Source: Patescibacteria group bacterium | Lineage (GTDB): Bacteria; Patescibacteriota; Minisyncoccia; Phycocordibacterales; DATDWN01 | Length of the DNA stretch: 64,000 nucleotides | Reading direction: 5' to 3' | NCBI GenBank assembly: GCA_040389125.1 | Contig: JAZKAN010000002.1 | Coordinates: forward strand, 1,232-65,231 | Part shown: piece after piece, positions 2,455 through 61,776 of the stretch | Numbering within the stretch: the stretch's first letter is position 1 | Layout of the letters: every line of letters starts with the position of its first letter | Made by a program: the position numbers and the translations under genes | The notes under the pieces: model-generated | What the model was told of the DNA's origin: nothing | Seen by the model: only the letters and a program-made list of their open reading frames with translations | Database searches by the model: none

Positions 2455-2481
2455 AACTTTCAATTTTCAAAATCTCAAATC

Positions 2482-2510
2482 AAAACACCCCACTCGGGGT
2501 GTTTTGATTT
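2482..2510 (+). terminator. Intrinsic terminator directly after rplE
   Basis: Stem AACACCCC (2484-2491), loop ACTC, stem GGGGTGTT (2496-2503), followed by TTGATTT. Confidence 0.75.
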
Positions 2511-2562
2511 ACTTGTATTTTCTTGAAAAGTATGGTTTTATATTGTAGGAGGCTGTAAAGAG

Positions 2563-2958
2563 ATGACGGCGGATACAATCATATTGATTTGTTGGATAGG
2601 CCTTGGCTTGTCCGTGCTTTGCTTGATTCGAGGGTGGCAACTCAGACTCCGTGCTCGACGTAGAGAGCTCGTGCAGAAAGTCACTCTGTACATGAAAGGT
2701 GGAGCATCGGCAAACACCTACCACAAAATCATTATTCGAGTGGTTGCAGGTCGTCAAGTGGTGGCTATCTGCTATGACAAAGGTCGCGAAATAGTCGTCG
2801 CTAAGGTGACTGTGGGGAATTGGACTGTTCAAACCGAGTCCATTCCCAATGAACTCAATCTCTATTCCGACATTAGCGAGGGGGAAGAAATCCTGGAATG
2901 GCTGAATCAAATTGCAGGATATTTGCGCACCTATAACATACCACTTGTGGCGGCGTGA
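2563..2958 (+). CDS. Hypothetical membrane-anchored protein (orphan cassette 1 inside the r-protein operon)
   Basis: 131-aa ORF with an AGGAGG Shine-Dalgarno site upstream. The N-terminus has a hydrophobic helix (IILICWIGLGLSVLCLI). It has its own terminator and is visibly GC-richer than its neighbours. Confidence 0.6.
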   Translation: MTADTIILICWIGLGLSVLCLIRGWQLRLRARRRELVQKVTLYMKGGASANTYHKIIIRVVAGRQVVAICYDKGREIVVAKVTVGNWTVQTESIPNELNLYSDISEGEEILEWLNQIAGYLRTYNIPLVAA

Positions 2959-2977
2959 AATGCCACCACCAAATCAA

Positions 2978-3009
2978 GCCGGCGTACCCACATGGGTCCG
3001 CCGGCTTTT
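2978..3009 (+). terminator. Intrinsic terminator of cassette 1
   Basis: GCCGGCG (2978-2984) pairs with CGCCGGC (2999-3005), followed by TTTT. The tail GCCGGCTTTTCACATGC recurs at 4237-4253. Confidence 0.7.
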
Positions 3010-3069
3010 CACATGCTCAAAACTTGTTTTAAATATGAGAGTATGTTTCCATTATATGAGGAGGGAGAT

Positions 3070-3477
3070 ATGCATAGGCTAACGCTCAGCATGGCCAGTT
3101 TCATCAGTGGGGAATTGGTAAAGGATCTTTGGAGGATGACGGACGGTAGCAATACCTGCTTTAGCTATCTCGACCGCGGGCATTTTGAGGCAGGGGTGGA
3201 GATATGTGAATTTTTTGTTGACATTGGGAGTATGAAAAAAAGACTTGAGTCTACTGGACCTCAATCTCACCCTTGCTCAAGGTTCAATTTTTCCCTGGAG
3301 CTGAGTGAGTCAGCACGAGCAAAGCCAAATGGAATGCTTGTGTTGGGCGTGTTGCAGAGTATGTCCAAACCCACTCAATGCCTTTTGTCTCGTTTGCTAA
3401 ACGGGAGAAATCTGCGTGAGCATCATCTGCAAGCGATAGAAGATTTCTTTTTTGAATTACATCGGCTCCTAGCATGA
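3070..3477 (+). CDS. Hypothetical protein (orphan cassette 2)
   Basis: In-frame ATG at 3070 preceded by GAGGAGGGAG. The track ORF start at 2992 would overlap the previous terminator hairpin. 135 aa with no recognisable motif. Confidence 0.5.
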   Translation: MHRLTLSMASFISGELVKDLWRMTDGSNTCFSYLDRGHFEAGVEICEFFVDIGSMKKRLESTGPQSHPCSRFNFSLELSESARAKPNGMLVLGVLQSMSKPTQCLLSRLLNGRNLREHHLQAIEDFFFELHRLLA

Positions 3478-3494
3478 CTTGTATCCGTTCACCA

Positions 3495-3527
3495 GCTGGC
3501 GTACCCTATCTCGGTCCGCCAGCTTTT
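3495..3527 (+). terminator. Intrinsic terminator of cassette 2
   Basis: GCTGGCG (3495-3501) pairs with CGCCAGC (3517-3523), followed by TTTT. It is homologous in layout and sequence to the terminators at 2978 and 4215. Confidence 0.65.
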
Positions 3528-3583
3528 CGTGTCTACACCATATAAATTTAAATTAAGCTCTCAACCCAGCCTTTTTCTACCCC

Positions 3584-3612
3584 TTGCATTTTATTCTTAT
3601 GTGTGATATAAT
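3584..3612 (+). promoter_or_regulatory. Sigma70-like promoter of cassette 3
   Basis: TTGCAT (3584-3589), 17-nt spacer, TATAAT (3607-3612). Confidence 0.5.
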
Positions 3613-3693
3613 ACAGGAGAAAGCTGAAGTGGGGCAGCTATAGACTCCATTCGCCGTCGGGCGTTAAATAGATCATTGATAAGGTGGTAGAAA

Positions 3694-4194
3694 ATGTTTG
3701 AAACGAATCAGACCCTCACAATTCAGTGGCCAGCACCCCTGGTCATTGTAGCGTCCCTCGCGTTTGCAATTCTGATAGTTGGTGGAGGTGCATGGTACCT
3801 TCATTGGCGAATCAAGGTAGTTATCGAGAAAGCTCTGAGCAAAGGAAAGGGTCTAAGTCATAAAGACGCTCAGCTCCAGACTACTCGCTACAATCTTGCT
3901 GGGCAGATTAAAAATACTCTGGCAACAACTGCAAAAGATCACCCAGTAAGTGATTTCATTCATGTGGAAAACTTATCGGATCGAGCAGAACTTTGCAGGT
4001 ATGTTGTGACAGCTTTCTATGTAAAAAGAAGCGTTGAATTGATTGTCCAAGTGACTGTGATGAAAGACTCGATTACTGCTCAAACTGCTTCTGGTCCGCA
4101 CAGTAGTCTGGGGTGCAGGGCTGATAGCGGAGACATGCTACTTTTTTTGGAAGGAATAAAAGATGAGGTCAGGGAGTTTAGGCCTAAATCCTAA
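3694..4194 (+). CDS. Hypothetical membrane-anchored protein (orphan cassette 3)
   Basis: 166-aa ORF with AAGGTGG 7 nt upstream. It has an N-terminal TM helix (LVIVASLAFAILIVGGGAWYL) and the same overall layout as cassette 1. Confidence 0.6.
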   Translation: MFETNQTLTIQWPAPLVIVASLAFAILIVGGGAWYLHWRIKVVIEKALSKGKGLSHKDAQLQTTRYNLAGQIKNTLATTAKDHPVSDFIHVENLSDRAELCRYVVTAFYVKRSVELIVQVTVMKDSITAQTASGPHSSLGCRADSGDMLLFLEGIKDEVREFRPKS

Positions 4195-4214
4195 ACACTT
4201 GAATCATCATACTA

Positions 4215-4246
4215 GCCGGTGCGTCCTTCGGGACGCGCCGGCTTTT
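4215..4246 (+). terminator. Intrinsic terminator of cassette 3
   Basis: GCCGGTGCGTCC, loop TTCG, GGACGCGCCGGC, followed by TTTT. Confidence 0.75.
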
Positions 4247-4273
4247 CACATGCAAAAAATTACGTACCCACTA

Positions 4274-4443
4274 GCATTACAGAAGCATGAGCATTTTTGG
4301 AGACCCCGCAGGCCTGAAGCATGGTTCTGTCAACGACCCGCCTTTTAGGGGCGGGCTCATTGACAGATTCAGGTCGAGGAAATGCTGAAAGTCCCGCAGG
4401 GGACTTGAAGGAATCTCCAAAAATGCTCATGCTTCTGTAATGC
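4274..4443 (+). repeat. Nested-palindrome repeat, family A, copy 1
   Basis: A 30-nt outer arm GCATTACAGAAGCATGAGCATTTTTGGAGA (4274-4303) is exactly complementary to 4414-4443. The inner core CCGCAGGCCTGAAGCATGGTTCTGTCAACGAC..CTCATTGACAGATTCAGGTCGAGG is shared with 41795-41951 and 43798-43984. Confidence 0.7.
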
Positions 4444-4454
4444 GAACTCTTAGT

Positions 4455-4483
4455 TTGACTCCCACACGGTAATCTGATAGTAT
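4455..4483 (+). promoter_or_regulatory. Sigma70-like promoter that restarts the r-protein operon at rpsN
   Basis: TTGACT (4455-4460), 17-nt spacer, TAGTAT (4478-4483), about 30 nt upstream of rpsN. Confidence 0.5.
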
Positions 4484-4514
4484 GACCCCAGCTTGTAAAA
4501 GCTAATTTTATTTC

Positions 4515-5177: not shown

Positions 5178-5711
5178 ATGTCACGAATCGGAAAAAAAAT
5201 AATAGCAATTCCAGAGAAAACAACAGTCACTACAGACGGTCTGAATTTTACTGTAGTTGGACCACTCGGAACACTCACAAAAAAGTTCAAGTCTGATATC
5301 GTGATCACGATAGGAGACAAAGAAATCACTCTCGAACCAAAACGCGTGACACTTGAAAACAAGGCACTGTGGGGAACATATGCATCCCACCTCATGAATA
5401 TGGTAAACGGCGTTACAACTCCATTTTCTAAAAAACTGATCATCGAGGGAATCGGATATAAATCTGAAGTCAAAGGCGACAACCTCGTCATGGCTCTCGG
5501 ATTTTCACACCCTGTTATTGTTCCGATTCCAAAGGGCTTGAAAGTAACTGCAGAGAAAAATATCATCACTGCAACAGGTATCGACAAAGAAGTCGTGGGA
5601 GAGTTTGTTGCAAACATACGATCACTCAAGAAACCAGAACCATACAAAGGTAAGGGTATTCGATACGAGGGAGAAGTGGTCAAGCGTAAACAAGGCAAGA
5701 AATCTGCATAA
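5178..5711 (+). CDS. rplF: 50S ribosomal protein L6
   Basis: The in-frame ATG at 5178 gives MSRIGKKIIAIPEKTTV, the canonical L6 N-terminus. The track start at 5133 overlaps rpsH. Confidence 0.95.
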   Translation: MSRIGKKIIAIPEKTTVTTDGLNFTVVGPLGTLTKKFKSDIVITIGDKEITLEPKRVTLENKALWGTYASHLMNMVNGVTTPFSKKLIIEGIGYKSEVKGDNLVMALGFSHPVIVPIPKGLKVTAEKNIITATGIDKEVVGEFVANIRSLKKPEPYKGKGIRYEGEVVKRKQGKKSA

Positions 5712-7131: not shown

Positions 7132-7250
7132 AATCTCATTCTCCTCATGGCTTTTTAAAACACGGAGTCGCTCGGGGCACTCGCGCTCCTCGCTCTCGGG
7201 CCGTCGCCCCGCGTACGGTTTTAAAAAGTCATGAGTCAACGAGATTTTAA
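7128..7250 (+). repeat. Nested-palindrome repeat, family B, copy 1 (overlaps the rplO stop codon)
   Basis: 7132-7246 matches 25592-25706 at 111 of 115 positions by hand alignment. Ends are AATCTC...GAGATT, the stem is CTCATGRCTTTTTAAAAC, and the core is GC-rich. Confidence 0.75.
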
Positions 7251-9540: not shown

Positions 9541-9663
9541 CAAATCTCGTCGACCAAATGCTTTTCCGGCGCATCACGGAATGAGTGAATACATGAGTGC
9601 GAGGAAAATTTTCAGCAGAAAATTATTCCGGCGACGGAAAAGCTTTTGGGAGAAAGAGATTTG
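9541..9663. repeat. Long imperfect palindrome (singleton) with family-B-like ends
   Basis: CAAATCTC...GAGATTTG termini. The internal stem GCTTTTCCG pairs with CGGAAAAGC, and CCAAA pairs with TTTGG (5 bp). Confidence 0.6.
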
Positions 9664-21088: not shown

Positions 21089-21282
21089 AATTATAGTTTA
21101 TTCACTTTTTTTGTAGGCAAAGATAAAGGTTGCTTAAAATGTGAGAATGAGGCAATTTTCCACAACAATTATACAAATAACACTTGACATTCTCGGTGGT
21201 TTTGCGAAAATATATTTACCTTCTCATGAAGGTCACCGGTTTTAACACATATTCGTATGAAAGTTTCTCTATAATAAAATAT

Positions 21283-21391
21283 AAAAAAGCTCTAATCACG
21301 GATATTTGTAAGGTCGAATAGATCTTGCAAATGCAAGGTTGAAATCAAGTAATTGCTTTCGACTTCAAATACCGGTGAGTAGAGCTTTTTT
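21283..21391. other. 109-nt branched hairpin flanked by A6 and T6 (bidirectional terminator-like, or a small RNA)
   Basis: AAAAAAGCTCTA pairs with TAGAGCTTTTTT. Inner stems are CACGG/CCGgTG and TATTTGtAAGGTCGAA/TTCGACTTCAAATA, plus two apical mini-hairpins. Confidence 0.5.
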
Positions 21392-21495
21392 ACTAAAAGT
21401 TTGGTAGTTTTCCCATCTTGAGCTCGTGATTTTAAAAAGATGTGCGGGAGAGCAAGTCGAAGTTCTTATCCAAAACTACTTGAGACTCATCATAT

Positions 21496-25091: not shown

Positions 25092-25192
25092 TGAGAAACT
25101 CAAATATAGCAAAAAGGAAGGCTATCGAAACGATAATCTTCCTTGTGCTGTAAGGCTATTTGAGGAATTTGTTACCTCAAATACTCTAGATG

Positions 25193-25578
25193 TGGAGATG
25201 GCGACATCGAAGTCGCATGCATAGAGAGAATTGAAGCGGGTCTACAGCGCGTAGTTTGTTTTAGTGTTTTAAATCATACTGCTCGGAACAAACAAAATAC
25301 AGTATGATCGAGTCATCTTTTTTTCGAAACATACTCGAGACTAAATATGTTTCTAACCTGCGTTTTATATCAATCAACTTCCCGTAGCGGGTGTGAGGGA
25401 AGCGACCGTCGTTTAGGCGTTAGCGTAAGCGAAGGAGAAATCATTTACAGTGAAGTAAGGAGATTTAACCTTTGTAACTAAGTTGTTTACACTTAAGTTT
25501 TTCGTGCTGTTTTAGGAGGACACGATACTCCGCGTTGCGCGAATCAATTGGCAAACTATGTCAAAACCTGTCATCCCC
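25193..25578 (-). ncRNA. ssrA: tmRNA (SsrA)
   Basis: The minus-strand 5' end is GGGGATGACAGGTTTTGACA. The 3' end is GCGAC-TTCGAT-GTCGC, then CATCTCC, then A. This gives a 7-bp acceptor stem with a G3:U70 pair. The in-frame tag candidate ends NDFSFAYANA then TAA. smpB is adjacent. Confidence 0.85.
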
Positions 25579-25586
25579 GATGTTAA

Positions 25587-25710
25587 TATACAATCTCTTT
25601 CTCCTCATGACTTTTTAAAACACGGAGTCGCTCGGGGCACTCGCGCTCCTCGCTCTCGGGCCGTCGCCCTGTGTACGGTTTTAAAAAGTCATGAGTCAAC
25701 GAGATTGTAT
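25587..25710 (+). repeat. Nested-palindrome repeat, family B, copy 2
   Basis: 25592-25706 matches 7132-7246 at 111 of 115 positions. It lies between the ssrA 5' end and the smpB stop. Confidence 0.75.
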
Positions 25711-41226: not shown

Positions 41227-41781
41227 ATGAAAAATAAATCATATTTATTTATTGGCATTATTTTGGTTTTAATTTTAGTTGGTTTTCTTGTGTACAGAAA
41301 TTCTGGTAACATTGATTCAGTCGCGAATTCTGGTACACAGACCGCGACTACTACAACTCAGGCCAACACTCCGCAGGCGGTGGAGTACAAAAATACAGAG
41401 TATGGGTTTACATTTTTGCTTCCACAGAGTTGGAAAGGGTATTCGATCATAGAAGACGAGTGGGGAGAGGATGGAAGCTGGACAGATGGCTCAGAGAGAA
41501 ATCCTGGTGGAGAAAGTGGCCCGCTCATTTCTATTCGCCATCCAGATTGGGAGTACAAGAGTCCACGCCAGGACATACCAATAATGGTTTTCACTATAAA
41601 ACAATGGAACGACATGCAGGCAGAGAAATTTCATATTGGTGCGGCACCGATAAATCCAAGCGAGCTCGGTCGTAACACAAAATACGTATTTGCACTTCCT
41701 GCGAGATACAATTTTGCCGATGCGGTCGGTATGGAGGAAGTGAATCAGATTATTGAAGGCAAACCCCTCAAAACGTTTTAA
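41227..41781 (+). CDS. Hypothetical membrane-anchored or exported protein
   Basis: 184-aa ORF with an N-terminal anchor (YLFIGIILVLILVGFLVY). Confidence 0.6.
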   Translation: MKNKSYLFIGIILVLILVGFLVYRNSGNIDSVANSGTQTATTTTQANTPQAVEYKNTEYGFTFLLPQSWKGYSIIEDEWGEDGSWTDGSERNPGGESGPLISIRHPDWEYKSPRQDIPIMVFTIKQWNDMQAEKFHIGAAPINPSELGRNTKYVFALPARYNFADAVGMEEVNQIIEGKPLKTF

Positions 41782-41794
41782 GTATTTTTACGAG

Positions 41795-41951
41795 CCCGCC
41801 CATTAATACATTTTGAAACATCCGCAAGCCTCGAGCACGGTCCTGTCAACGACTCAAGTATTCTCTTGAGCTCATTGACAGGTCGAGGCTGAGGACCGAA
41901 CGAACTTTTCGCCGGAAAAGTGAGTGTTTTCAAAATGTATTAATGGGTGGG
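41795..41951 (+). repeat. Nested-palindrome repeat, family A, copy 2
   Basis: The outer arm CCCGCCCATTAATACATTTTGAAACA pairs with 41925-41951. The core is CCGCAAGCCTCGAGCACGGTCCTGTCAACGAC..CTCATTGACAGGTCGAGG, with a second hairpin CTTTTCGCCGGAAAAG. Confidence 0.7.
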
Positions 41952-41966
41952 TGAGTTTACTAAGTC

Positions 41967-42623
41967 TTAATGCGCGATTGTAAATGCGTACACATCTTTT
42001 GCTCCAGCACTGAGTAGTGTGTGACGTGCTTCGGAGAGAGTGCTACCTGTAGTGACCACATCGTCAATTAAAATAATATACTTACCTGCCACTCGCGGAT
42101 CCGCTTCGAAACATCCTGTCAGGTTGTGCATGCGTTCCTCCCTAGACTGGCTACGACTTTGTTTTGGTGTGTCCACTGTTTTTTGAAACCATTGTGGTGC
42201 ATACAGTAGTGTGTGTGCCGTGTCACAGTTAAACACCGCCTTTGCAATATACTCGCTCTGGTTGTACCCACGTTCTGTCCGACGGAGAACAGAAATAGGA
42301 ATGGGAATAAGTAGAAACTCTGCGTCACTATCAAAAATCACAATGTCAGAAACGAGAGCAACGATTTCTTCATACAACAGAGTTCCGATATGATCGAGTG
42401 GTAGAGTATTTTCCCTATATTTGAGTTCCCAAATTATTGCTTTTACTTTTGGATTTTTGTAATAAAACAAAGGGTGAATCCAGTCTGCATTTTCCACATG
42501 TGGATTTCTCGGTAGTTCAAAAATATCCTTAGCAGTCAGTTTTCTAACAATATCAAAGTCTGTTCGAGGAGGAAGAATAATATCAAGAAAGGTACAGATA
42601 ATTTCTTTCAATCTTTTCAACAT
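41967..42623 (-). CDS. comFC: ComF family protein (ComFC, phosphoribosyltransferase domain)
   Basis: 218 aa with a C-terminal PRTase motif KYIILIDDVVTTGSTLSEA. Confidence 0.85.
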   Translation of the reverse strand: MLKRLKEIICTFLDIILPPRTDFDIVRKLTAKDIFELPRNPHVENADWIHPLFYYKNPKVKAIIWELKYRENTLPLDHIGTLLYEEIVALVSDIVIFDSDAEFLLIPIPISVLRRTERGYNQSEYIAKAVFNCDTAHTLLYAPQWFQKTVDTPKQSRSQSREERMHNLTGCFEADPRVAGKYIILIDDVVTTGSTLSEARHTLLSAGAKDVYAFTIAH

Positions 42624-43797: not shown

Positions 43798-43984
43798 GAA
43801 AACTTTTCAAACTCCTCTCCCCAAACCCGTTTCAGAGACGCTCGCTTTTCCTGCGAAAAGCTCTCTCGGTCCTCGACCTGAATCCGTCAATGAGCCCAAG
43901 TATTCTCTTGGGTCGTTGACGGAACCATGCTTCAGGTCTGCGGATGCTCTGAAACCGGTTCGGGTCGACGAGCTTGAAAAGTTT
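43798..43984 (-). repeat. Nested-palindrome repeat, family A, copy 3 (inverted orientation)
   Basis: The reverse complement carries CCGCAGACCTGAAGCATGGTTCCGTCAACGAC..CTCATTGACGGATTCAGGTCGAGG and CTTTTCGCAGGAAAAG. It begins at the base after the pilM stop codon. Confidence 0.7.
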
Positions 43985-44089
43985 AATTTTCAAAACAAAC
44001 CTCATTTTTGACATGATTCAAAAATACTCATATTTAAAGCCGTATTTTCACTACTCAAAAAAGAAAATGCAATTTTGCATGAAATTCGC

Positions 44090-44118
44090 TTGACTTTGTA
44101 TGCACACCGTGCTATGCT
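44090..44118 (+). promoter_or_regulatory. Sigma70-like promoter of the GC-rich unit
   Basis: TTGACT (44090-44095), 17-nt spacer, TATGCT (44113-44118). Confidence 0.5.
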
Positions 44119-44124
44119 TTACTC

Positions 44125-44499
44125 ATAATCGTTCATTAGAAGTATTGTAGTTGGGATGCAGTTGAGTGGGTTTGGAGGACTTGAGCCTTCGCCCACAATG
44201 GAGAATACCATGCACAACCGCGGATCCACGGCGCACGGCGCCTACGTCAACCATCATAGCGCCCATTTGAGCCATGTCCCGATGATCGTCACCACCGCGC
44301 GCGCCAACCATCGCAAGTAACCCGGCGCCGGCGGCCGGCGAGTGCGAGCGACCACACGGTCGCTGCGCTTGCCAGGCGAGAATGAGAAGTATTCCAGTCC
44401 GATCGCGGGCGCCAGCTTTGGGAAATATCGAAAGATAAAATCCCTAACGCTACGCCCGCAGGCCCCAGCCCCCGACCACAAATCGGGGGTGTTTTTTTG
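44125..44499 (+). other. GC-rich transcription unit of unknown function (short His-rich ORF or ncRNA), promoter to terminator
   Basis: This is visibly the most GC-rich stretch of the window. The ORF 44198-44320 encodes MENTMHNRGSTAHGAYVNHHSAHLSHVPMIVTTARANHRK with strongly G/C-biased third codon positions. The terminator is CCCCCGA..TCGGGGG followed by T7 (44469-44499). Confidence 0.3.
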
Positions 44500-44515
44500 T
44501 ATAAAAACTATTAAG

Positions 44516-44733
44516 TGAATAAATCCAGAATAATATAATTTTGGAAACTCCGGAAACGATTAGGAAACAACGACGAATGAAGAGGAGTCCGAAGCACTGT
44601 TTGAGCACAGGTACTCCTGGCGAGTTTGCGAGAGGACTCTGGAATGAGGACGATTGTTTCCTTGATCGTTGAGGTAGAGGAAAAAGTCACCAGACTTTTA
44701 TCCGTTTTTCAAAATTATATTATTCTGGATTCA
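44516..44733 (+). repeat. Nested-palindrome repeat, family C, copy 1
   Basis: The outer arm AATCCAGAATAATATAATTTTG pairs with CAAAATTATATTATTCTGGATT. The core CCGAAGCACTGTTTGAGCACAGGTACTCCTGGCGAGTTTGCGAGAGG is shared, in reverse complement, with 58384-58594. Confidence 0.7.
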
Positions 44734-44827
44734 TGAACCACTTTGTCCACAGCTCCCACTGTGTTTTTTATTTCCATATTCTTGTATACTTACTCTAGTA
44801 TTTGTGCGCGAATTCACACACTAACTC

Positions 44828-54816: not shown

Positions 54817-58381
<3,565 letters not shown>

Positions 58382-58383
58382 GT

Positions 58384-58594
58384 AAAGGAAATAAATATAT
58401 TTTCAGAGCACGCATAAAATTGTACTCAATTTTTGCTCTCGCTCAGAGATCAAGAAAATAATACACTCAATGCGTAGCCCTCTCGCAAACTCGCCAGGAT
58501 TACCTGTGCTCAAACAGTGCTTCGGGCTTACTTCATTTTCGCTGTTATTTTCTAATCTCTTCCGCAGTCTCAAAAAATTATATTTATTTTCTTT
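58384..58594 (-). repeat. Nested-palindrome repeat, family C, copy 2 (inverted)
   Basis: The reverse complement carries CCGAAGCACTGTTTGAGCACAGGTAATCCTGGCGAGTTTGCGAGAGG plus homologous arms. It starts 3 nt after the ligA stop. Confidence 0.7.
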
Positions 58595-58626
58595 ACTTTT
58601 GCTCATTTTCCAAAAAATGCTATTGT

Positions 58627-61432: not shown

Positions 61433-61776
61433 TTGCGGGACCAGGACTTGCACCTGGGTCTGAAGGTTATGCTTTCCACTATAGTTTTCACTACTTCCAA
61501 ATTTCAAAAATTTGTAATTTGTGGTCTGGACTATACCATTTCCTTTTTCAAACGAGTTTGAAGGTAAGGAATTCACCATCTAGTCTCTACACATTTATCA
61601 GTTGATTTTAGTCATCTGAATTTAGCTCGGAATTGTCTTTCTCTACTATACTATAGTAAAGAGAGGATTTCTCCGAATTTGGCGAATGCAATCCTAAAAA
61701 TTTCTTTTTAGGTGGCCCATACAGGATGCAAGATCCAATACTTGAGCCTTCCGAGATACTGCTTCTCTATCCCGCT
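61433..61776 (-). tRNA. Initiator-like tRNA(CAU) interrupted by a 273-nt group I intron in the anticodon loop
   Basis: The 5' exon (61776-61745) is AGCGGGA-TA-GAGA-AGCAGTA-TCTC-G-GAAGG-CT. The 3' exon (61471-61433) is CATAA-CCTTC-AGAC-CCAGG-TGCAAGT-CCTGG-TCCCGCA-A. The spliced loop is CTCATAA. Features are A11:U24 and a 1:72 mismatch. Confidence 0.75.
61472..61744 (-). mobile_element. Group I self-splicing intron (IC3/Azoarcus-like core)
   Basis: The minus strand contains GTGTAGAGACTAGATGG (plus-strand 61576-61592) and CAAATTCGGAGAAATCC (61665-61681). As recalled, these closely match the Azoarcus tRNA-Ile intron core segments. U precedes the 5' splice site and G ends the intron. Confidence 0.75.

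Follow-up and report, generated by a model that had tools for sequence, protein, structure and literature searches.

Folded non-coding repeats with a conserved three-way-junction core form a multi-copy family in Patescibacteria

The DNA analyzed here, referred to below as the window, is a stretch of 64,000 nucleotides from a Patescibacteria (CPR) MAG whose PilM has its nearest proteins in Zambryskibacteria/Paceibacterota. It carries three copies of an intergenic element that we call family A, located at 4274 to 4443 on the + strand (copy 1), 41795 to 41951 on the + strand (copy 2), and 43798 to 43984 on the - strand (copy 3), in agreement with an initial annotation of the sequence. The common core claimed there was borne out by the sequence GCAYGGTYCYGTCAACGAC, which occurs exactly three times in the 64 kb (0.06 occurrences expected), a count reached by 0 of 100 shuffles. 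An exhaustive covariance-model (CM) scan of the window returned only these three copies, at 122 to 129 bits (4294 to 4424, 121.7 bits; 41810 to 41939, 128.4 bits; 43826 to 43955, 129 bits), and the next best match scored at most 15.6 bits. All copies had been described as beginning within a few nucleotides of stop codons. Copy 2 lies between the stops of an ORF at 41227 to 41781 (+) and a ComF-like ORF at 41967 to 42623 (-), starting 14 nt past the first and ending 16 nt short of the second, and in copy 3 it is the 3' end that directly abuts the pilM stop (43797). The description does not apply to copy 1, which starts 80 nt past the stop of the ORF at 3694 to 4194, an orphan hypothetical protein. 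Two features that belong to the context of copy 1 rather than to the element are a canonical terminator hairpin with a T-run (4215 to 4250, +), 24 nt on its 5' side, and a promoter-like site for the S14 gene (TTGACT-17-TGnTAGTAT, 4455 to 4483, +), 12 nt on its 3' side, the orthologous position of which is kept in locus L073.

In the ribosomal protein cluster, the L5-S14 junction (2455 to 4514) is split by three orphan ORFs (2563 to 2958, 2992 to 3477, and 3694 to 4194, with no Pfam match), the terminator, and copy 1; locus L073 has a different orphan ORF at this junction, whereas in locus L074 there is none. With a terminator and a promoter of its own, the site resembles a hot spot for insertions.

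The MFE fold of all three window copies is a three-way junction, with z scores against shuffles of -13.0, -10.4, and -10.3 for copies 1 to 3, respectively. The junction has a short CC/GG closure, is flanked by CCGCAG and CGAGGA, and is closed by a long stem, P1. In copy 1 (all features on the + strand), the 5' arm of P1 (4274 to 4303) pairs perfectly with the 3' arm (4414 to 4443), and the CC of CCGCAG (4306 to 4311) pairs with the GG of CGAGGA (4375 to 4380), a motif found in the cores of types B and C as well (see below). P2 (4312 to 4375) is long, starting with the base stem GCCUGAA/UUCAGGU and a 7-nt bulge (GCAUGGU at 4319 to 4325; GCAYGGU in the family), followed by the mid stem UCUGUCAA/UUGACAGA, a near-helical CGAC/CUCA segment, and a GC-rich tip hairpin (4338 to 4355). 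P3 is the hairpin AGUCCCGCAGGGGACU (4390 to 4405), capped by the conserved apex C-GCNG-G, and corresponds in the window copies to the second short hairpin of the initial annotation. The conserved unit is a core of ~110 to 130 nt made up of the ends, the junction, P2, and P3, with the consensus CCGCAG / CGAGGAC at the junction, AGCAYGGU in the P2 bulge, and C-GCNG-G at the P3 cap. It is bordered by the semi-conserved inverted ends cUUUUnnGAGAC ... GUCUCnnAAAAg, of ~10 to 12 bp, which lie within a longer variable stem.

The pairing of the core is supported by covariation. The score was 0.472, against 0.155 for column shuffles (0 of 500 reached the observed value) and at most 0.10 when pairing partners were slid; changes were found on both sides in 24 of 31 pairs, and 95.8% of cells were paired. 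The pattern had initially been attributed either to a structured RNA with covarying stems or to insertion into the center of pre-existing palindromes. With regard to the first alternative, there is indeed a three-way junction with covarying P2, P3, and junction-closing pairs, but the outer stem cannot be taken as a single covarying helix. In general terms, such covariation is expected of a structured functional RNA, and the complementarity fits the opposite strand or single-stranded DNA (ssDNA) equally well. Divergent copies may lack the CGAC/CUCA segment, the distal P2, or even the AGCAYGGU bulge; the ends, CCGCAG, CGAGGAC, and the P3 apex remain in them. Among the metagenome matches listed, the distal P2 is freely replaceable. 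Of the loop resemblances considered (K-turn, CsrA site, SD mimic, and tetraloop receptor), none agreed with the consensus closely enough to be put forward. Two copies (L002:4856-5016 and L015:635-798) carry a further small insert, GGGAACACUUAUGCAUGAGGUAAUCCU, placed precisely at a CGCNGG motif, which is the 5' junction in L002 and the P3 loop in L015; with this motif present twice in the element, it may be a recognition or insertion site. Two others (L032:5622-5892 and L042:7628-7878) are enlarged by an extra conserved module past P2, consisting of CGCAAGACCUUGA, a hairpin, and GAAAGGUGUACUGCUCCUGUAAGGAGAG.

Family A extends well beyond the window. A scan of a genome collection for the exact pattern, with one genome per species, gave 63 loci, ~57 of them with the full motif and all of these from Patescibacteria-type MAGs, with several contigs per MAG; the MAG records are labeled Saccharibacteria, Parcubacteria/Paceibacterota, Zambryskibacteria, or Minisyncoccia. 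Short copy-bearing contigs in a 'Nitrospira' bin are probably mis-binned. The initial annotation had proposed a search for further copies by covariance model, and such a model (R1) found 66 in 412 kb of scanned loci, including 8 divergent copies overlooked by the pattern and 4 within the 8-kb locus L055. A metagenome scan with a junction-based pattern added 9 CM matches in 8 of 120 loci, among the matches listed, and scans of viral contigs gave chance matches only. About 75 relatives are known from Patescibacteria MAGs, several per genome. Contigs of related MAGs tend to end at or near these elements (L072, a 1,063-nt contig, and several contigs of 1.8 to 5 kb), which suggests that these repeats fragment CPR assemblies.

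The initial annotation did not recognize the motif, consistent with the absence of any Rfam 15 match at the gathering threshold on family A elements; the families covered include twister-sister, hatchet, pistol, hammerhead, HEARO, Y RNA, and 6S. At E <= 10, only weak overlaps of 11.8 to 21 bits, far under the gathering scores, were obtained (CRISPR-DR17, SNORA71, and ncr1175 on copy 1; mir-2954 and snoU83B on copy 3), and we found no account of such an element in CPR in the literature and preprints searched. Family A is a previously uncatalogued multi-copy family in the tiny genomes of Patescibacteria. The lack of a match to any known family, together with the multi-copy, intergenic, compact three-way junction and its invariant unpaired purines, recalls the genomic signature of twister, hatchet, or pistol ribozymes, and the bulge and junction nucleotides might then form the active site of a new self-cleaving ribozyme or RNA-mediated mobile element. 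We consider this very improbable, however: similarity to ribozyme models was not seen even at E <= 10, the AGCAYGGU bulge and the distal P2 are absent from some otherwise intact copies, and no pseudoknot covariation was found.

The P1 arms are 30 nt and 100% complementary in copy 1, 24 nt and 96% complementary in copy 2 (41795 to 41818 and 41928 to 41951), and 38 nt and 84% complementary in copy 3 (43800 to 43837 and 43947 to 43984). The perfect 30-bp stem of copy 1 and the imperfect one of copy 3 are as first reported. Likewise, an outer stem completely different in each copy yet complementary had been described; the complementarity holds, but P1 is not wholly different between copies because its innermost ~10 bp (UUUUnnGAnAC / GUnUCnnAAAA) are similar in the window copies. 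The distal 20 nt of the copy 1 5' arm occur once in the window, and P1 arms have no other match there, so that a guide-RNA function was rejected. Across the family, the median P1 has 30 pairs and the median element length is 174 nt.

Many relatives have in common a framework hairpin, AAAUCUC-GUYGA ... GAGAAA-GAGAUUU, laid out as 5' AAAAUCUC-GUYGA-stem ... stem-(U)GAGAAA-GAGAUUUU 3'. Its DNA form, CTCGTYGA ... GAGAAAGAG, was found in ~16 to 30 of 61 family A copies (roughly a quarter to half), and copy 3 is a variant with a framework-like internal loop in P1 (CUC-GUCGA-CCC / GGG-GAGAG-GAG). P1 therefore lies outside the conserved unit and is either the shared framework or a hairpin of the local intergenic region, terminator-like and located where genes end. 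A further motif, YACCACUAAGCAAA, stands directly 5' of P1 in L010, L018, L023, L046, L062, and L063, often after an A/T-rich stretch, and in a degenerate form in L025, L038, L040, and at 4262 to 4276 of the window. This motif may mark the 5' end of a transcript or pair with UGGU in the P2 bulge; alternatively, it may belong to a different element.

The same framework also encloses other cores. An element with a core of type C (9544 to 9660, +) has the outer framework AAAUCUC-GUCGA ... GAGAAA-GAGAU as in family A, and 115-nt elements of this type sharing the framework were found at L030:186-300, L006:5327-5441, and L032:5025-5137; the type C core contains GCGAGGAAAAUUUUCAGCAGAAAAUU, the CGAGGA motif, and a P3-like hairpin. 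Two near-identical elements with a GC-rich core of type B are set in the framework form AAUCUC-GUUGA ... GAGAAA-GAGAUU, one between an L15-like ORF and secY (7133 to 7245, -) and the other (25593 to 25705, -) 15 nt upstream of the tmRNA gene (25190 to 25578, -). Rfam gave no match for types B and C. The larger type D (~215 nt) has the architecture of family A, with similar end and junction motifs, copy-specific closing stems of 24 to 29 bp, and a common core (CCGAAGCACUGUUUGAGCACAGGUA.UCCUGGCGAGUUUGCGAGAGG). It is represented in the window at 44519 to 44734 (+), with a unique 29-bp P1, a junction UUUUGGAAAC-UCCGGAA, a long P2, GAGAGGAC, and a P3-like hairpin, and at 58380 to 58598 (-), and in locus L066 at ~5370 to 5580 (+). 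The first of these lies with copy 3 in a single non-coding gap of ~1 kb. CGAGGA is found in cores A, B, and C and the related GAGAGGAC in D. The best explanation is a superfamily of folded non-coding repeats, of which family A forms one branch, with at least four core types (A to D) and eight elements in the 64-kb window; its members would populate intergenic DNA of Patescibacteria akin to Zambryskibacteria/Paceibacteria.

Comparison with relatives showed that these elements vary in presence and in core. In the sister genome represented by L066, whose PilM is 88% identical to that of the window, the copy 2 site holds only an AT-rich hairpin of ~17 bp flanked by A...T, between the same two convergent stops. 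Once the core is removed, the outer arms of copy 2 align partly to this hairpin; it is the only clean empty/filled pair that backs a pre-existing hairpin, and the alignment is soft, the sequences being AT-rich and palindromic. Downstream of pilM, L066 has an element whose P1 is orthologous to that of copy 3, with compensated substitutions and a compensated indel in the distal arm, and whose core is different, its P2 base and mid stem being identical to those of window copy 2. To judge from these sequences, the core can be exchanged while P1 stays in place. No element was present at the copy 2 or copy 3 site in L068 to L071 (PilM 74 to 79% identical). In the corresponding region of L068 (7117 to 7694), a 175-aa gene lies directly past pilM; this gene is absent from the window (43798 to 44827) and from L066, where 0.7 to 1 kb of non-coding DNA with one element each of family A and type D stands in its place. 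L002, L015, L032, and L042 contain nested or mosaic copies.

At the copy 1 site, the L5-S14 junction of two relatives consists of the terminator, the promoter, and S14, with no element and no palindrome. The upstream genes differ, leaving only the right boundary orthologous, and since the left flank is non-orthologous the comparison is half usable. The alternative of insertion into pre-existing palindromes finds support in the L066 hairpin at the copy 2 site but not at the copy 1 site. An old terminator cannot account for every P1, since the relatives have no palindrome and copy 1 is without a T-run, with an intact terminator just upstream. According to the initial annotation, empty sites in which the outer arms are ordinary pre-existing terminators unrelated to the core would speak against a covarying RNA, and the plain hairpin at the copy 2 site comes near to that case. 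Given the shared framework, the other cores found inside it, and the empty-site hairpin and core replacement in L066, P1 is not simply a covarying helix.

The genes flanking the copies are unrelated housekeeping genes (PheT, DnaK, MreB, EF-G, and RecA, among others), for which reason a conserved neighbor gene was rejected, and no transposase, RT, or recurrent partner gene was found among 95 flanking ORFs. Relative to the element strand, the neighboring genes are oriented '--' in 21 cases, '++' in 12, '+-' in 11, and '-+' in 3. At least one side adjoins the 3' end of a gene in 44 of the 47 fully classified copies, the other 3 lying between divergent genes, a setting that the elements avoid. In 37 of 55 copies, a convergent gene has its stop within ~25 nt of the element's 3' end. 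This location would fit a host-evolved cis element, such as an elaborate bidirectional terminator, an mRNA stabilizer, or an RNase III processing hairpin, which recombination would have duplicated and whose core would serve as a protein-binding platform. The A-run/U-run framework (AAAAUCUC ... GAGAUUUU) at the base of many relatives and the plain hairpin at the same place in the empty site are in line with such an origin, and from general knowledge complementary arms of 24 to 38 nt would suit RNase III. We nevertheless regard it as improbable. A terminator role leaves the three-way junction, the four core types, and the swapping of cores unexplained; copy 1 lacks a U-run past its stem and is preceded by a canonical terminator distinct from it, and a consensus terminator scan called none of the three window copies, copy 1 being without a T-run.

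The density of copies, their presence or absence among relatives, the replacement of cores, the several cores per framework, the nested copies, and the random neighbors lead us to read family A as a selfish or recombining repeat. We give about an even chance to the core being a structured, non-autonomous module which copying or conversion places in the apexes of hairpins at gene 3' ends, the composite being tolerated or exploited there as one long hairpin. As a piece of mobile or recombining DNA, the core would be comparable in function to REP/BIME, ERIC, BOX, or Correia-type repeats and would reach hairpin apexes by copying or gene conversion. The composite might persist because at gene ends it still folds as a single long hairpin that behaves as a terminator or 3'-end structure, and its arms would be kept complementary by selection on single-strand folding, probably also by palindrome-templated correction. 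We infer mobility as such, the targeting of hairpin loops, the terminator-like role, and the RNA or ssDNA state of the element. Against this module reading, no mobilizing enzyme, autonomous partner, or longer version was found in the loci examined (no long autonomous version with the 5' end motif in ~0.5 Mb), direct repeats at the flanks did not exceed the control level for a target-site duplication, and ordinary ectopic gene conversion, without transposition, could account for core exchange. The conserved unpaired nucleotides and the discrete P2 variants found across MAGs would also fit a family of host-functional RNA genes.

The latter is the main rival, in which the elements are small RNA genes of the host, present in multiple copies, the core being an ncRNA that acts in trans or binds protein and P1 a processing or terminator stalk. 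As a mere stalk, like rRNA processing stems, P1 would be free to vary while pairing. The strong covariation, the conserved unpaired CCGCAG, AGCAYGGU, CGAGGAC, and GCNG loop, and the recurrence of discrete P2 variants agree with it, as does the folding strand. Wobble bias was measured by a symmetric DNA-level count; a count from MFE helices (101 G.U vs 7 A.C in P1) was rejected as biased because such helices absorb G.U pairs and stop at A.C. On the element strand, P1 contains 61 G.U and 29 A.C pairs, with the strongest excess (22:6) where the element is antisense to both neighbors, and the asymmetry tracks the orientation of the element, not that of the genes. Whole elements fold better on this strand in 41 of 57 cases (p = 3e-6), a figure in which some bias remains, as boundaries were chosen on that strand. 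From the P1 wobble excess and the better fold, it appears that the element's own strand folds, be it as RNA or as ssDNA, the data fitting either.

Two features of position also favor small RNA genes: a same-strand terminator lies within 100 nt upstream in 10 of 56 copies, as would be the case for separate transcription units (a weak association, with 3 to 5 in control positions), and copy 1 sits between a terminator and a promoter. The YACCACUAAGC motif recurs 5' of P1 in ~6 to 10 copies. However, no convincing promoter was found upstream of the copies, many of which leave only 10 to 55 nt between P1 and the start of a neighboring divergent gene, and the core has no significant strand asymmetry (34 G.U vs 22 A.C, with no MFE difference). 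Presence/absence and core replacement among close relatives, nested and truncated copies, and the dispensability of P2 in some copies are also difficult to reconcile with small RNA genes. We thus view this possibility as unlikely on balance, although it deserves to be kept in mind.

The P1 wobble excess has another potential source in ssDNA transposition. Remnants of ssDNA transposons, like IS200/IS605-derived PATEs or REPINs moved in trans by a RAYT-type HUH enzyme, would insert into extruded ssDNA hairpins, which would explain both the loop targeting and the strand-specific wobble excess, the latter following element orientation. Structure is kept while sequence varies, copies are many and intergenic, and they occupy hairpin apexes. 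No target-site duplication (TSD) was detected, flanking direct repeats equaling those of a shifted-boundary control (the boundaries are uncertain), as in IS200/IS605. On the other hand, the 95 flanking ORFs include no Y1/HUH transposase, no GTAG/CGTC-type REP tag is visible, and the core has no significant G.T excess. The elements are, if anything, antisense to their neighbors (21 vs 12), which we take to be opposite to the expectation for the lagging template if genes follow replication. This origin seems rather unlikely to us. A broader and tentative view, which we rate as possible but somewhat doubtful, is that these are interchangeable three-way-junction RNA or ssDNA modules homing to the loops at the tips of intergenic or terminator hairpins, which would make them a new kind of genetic element dependent on structure, or else a new abundant class of functional ncRNA of Patescibacteria. 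In the case of loop homing, recognition or catalysis might proceed via CCGCAG / AGCAYGGU / CGAGGAC / GCNG, carried out by a protein or by RNA-mediated chemistry.

Several known systems resemble family A in part. ERIC/IRU and the pneumococcal BOX repeats are non-coding, multi-copy imperfect palindromes of 100 to 200 nt, intergenic, often transcribed, and found in either orientation; they are modular with internal insertions, form long stem-loops, and have no coding capacity, and we know of no dedicated transposase for them. Family A is also short, non-coding, multi-copy, intergenic, and folded, but it belongs to another phylum and has no sequence relation to them. Moreover, ERIC and BOX are conserved along the whole palindrome, whereas family A is conserved in the apical three-way junction and its basal stem is variable or framework. 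REP/BIME and REPIN sequences are extragenic palindromes that occur in high copy number at gene 3' ends and have side effects as terminators or mRNA stabilizers, and the insertion of IS1397/IS621-type elements into REP hairpins is a precedent for mobile DNA targeting an intergenic hairpin loop. However, REPs are simple hairpins of 20 to 40 nt with a GTAG/CGTC tag. In family A, no such tag was found at P1 or the core ends and no RAYT-like gene or IS was seen near the copies, and the inserted unit is a non-coding structured core, whereas the unit that targets REPs is an IS.

The Neisseria Correia MITEs are short, non-autonomous, located near genes, and bounded by terminal inverted repeats, and their transcribed hairpins are cut by RNase III. 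Family A differs in having no fixed TSD and only ~10 to 12 bp of semi-conserved inverted ends, and its internal sequence has structural covariation, which ordinary MITEs do not. In the attC sites of integrons, structure is kept while sequence varies, one strand folds, and the site is placed right after stops, the folded strand often being antisense to the upstream gene. Conservation is reversed with respect to family A, as attC sites have a conserved base (R/L boxes) and a variable apex, whereas the stem bases here are copy-specific or framework. attC sites also form part of cassette arrays, whereas family A copies are dispersed among housekeeping genes and have no GTTRRRY core sites. Neither do the copies resemble a retron msr-msd, no RT gene adjoining any of ~55 copies. 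The orphan ncRNAs (HEARO/omega RNA, GOLLD, ROOL, and raiA) are similar in being covarying multi-stem RNAs without a known function, sometimes multi-copy and linked to mobile DNA, but family A has no Rfam 15 match, much denser copies, insertion polymorphism, and module swapping. An unusual aspect of family A lies in its conserved unit, an apical three-way junction whose stems covary and whose unpaired nucleotides are invariant.

Patescibacteria genomes are roughly 1 Mb in size and have very little non-coding DNA, and eight folded non-coding elements of one superfamily make up ~2% of the window length. If mobile, these would be the first described REP/ERIC-like repeat system of CPR and an exceptionally clear example of hairpin apexes serving as nesting sites for a structured module, and would explain breaks in CPR MAG contigs. 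If they are host-functional RNAs, they would form a new abundant ncRNA class in a group whose RNA biology is almost unexplored. In both cases, annotation, strain typing, and experiments can make immediate use of the covariance model and the framework motif.

Two other structured features were observed in the window. One is a further 27-nt inverted repeat with 89% complementarity around 57 nt, at 21282 to 21392. The other, at 61505 to 61735 (-) near a tRNA cluster, is a group I intron match of 64 bits, above the gathering threshold.
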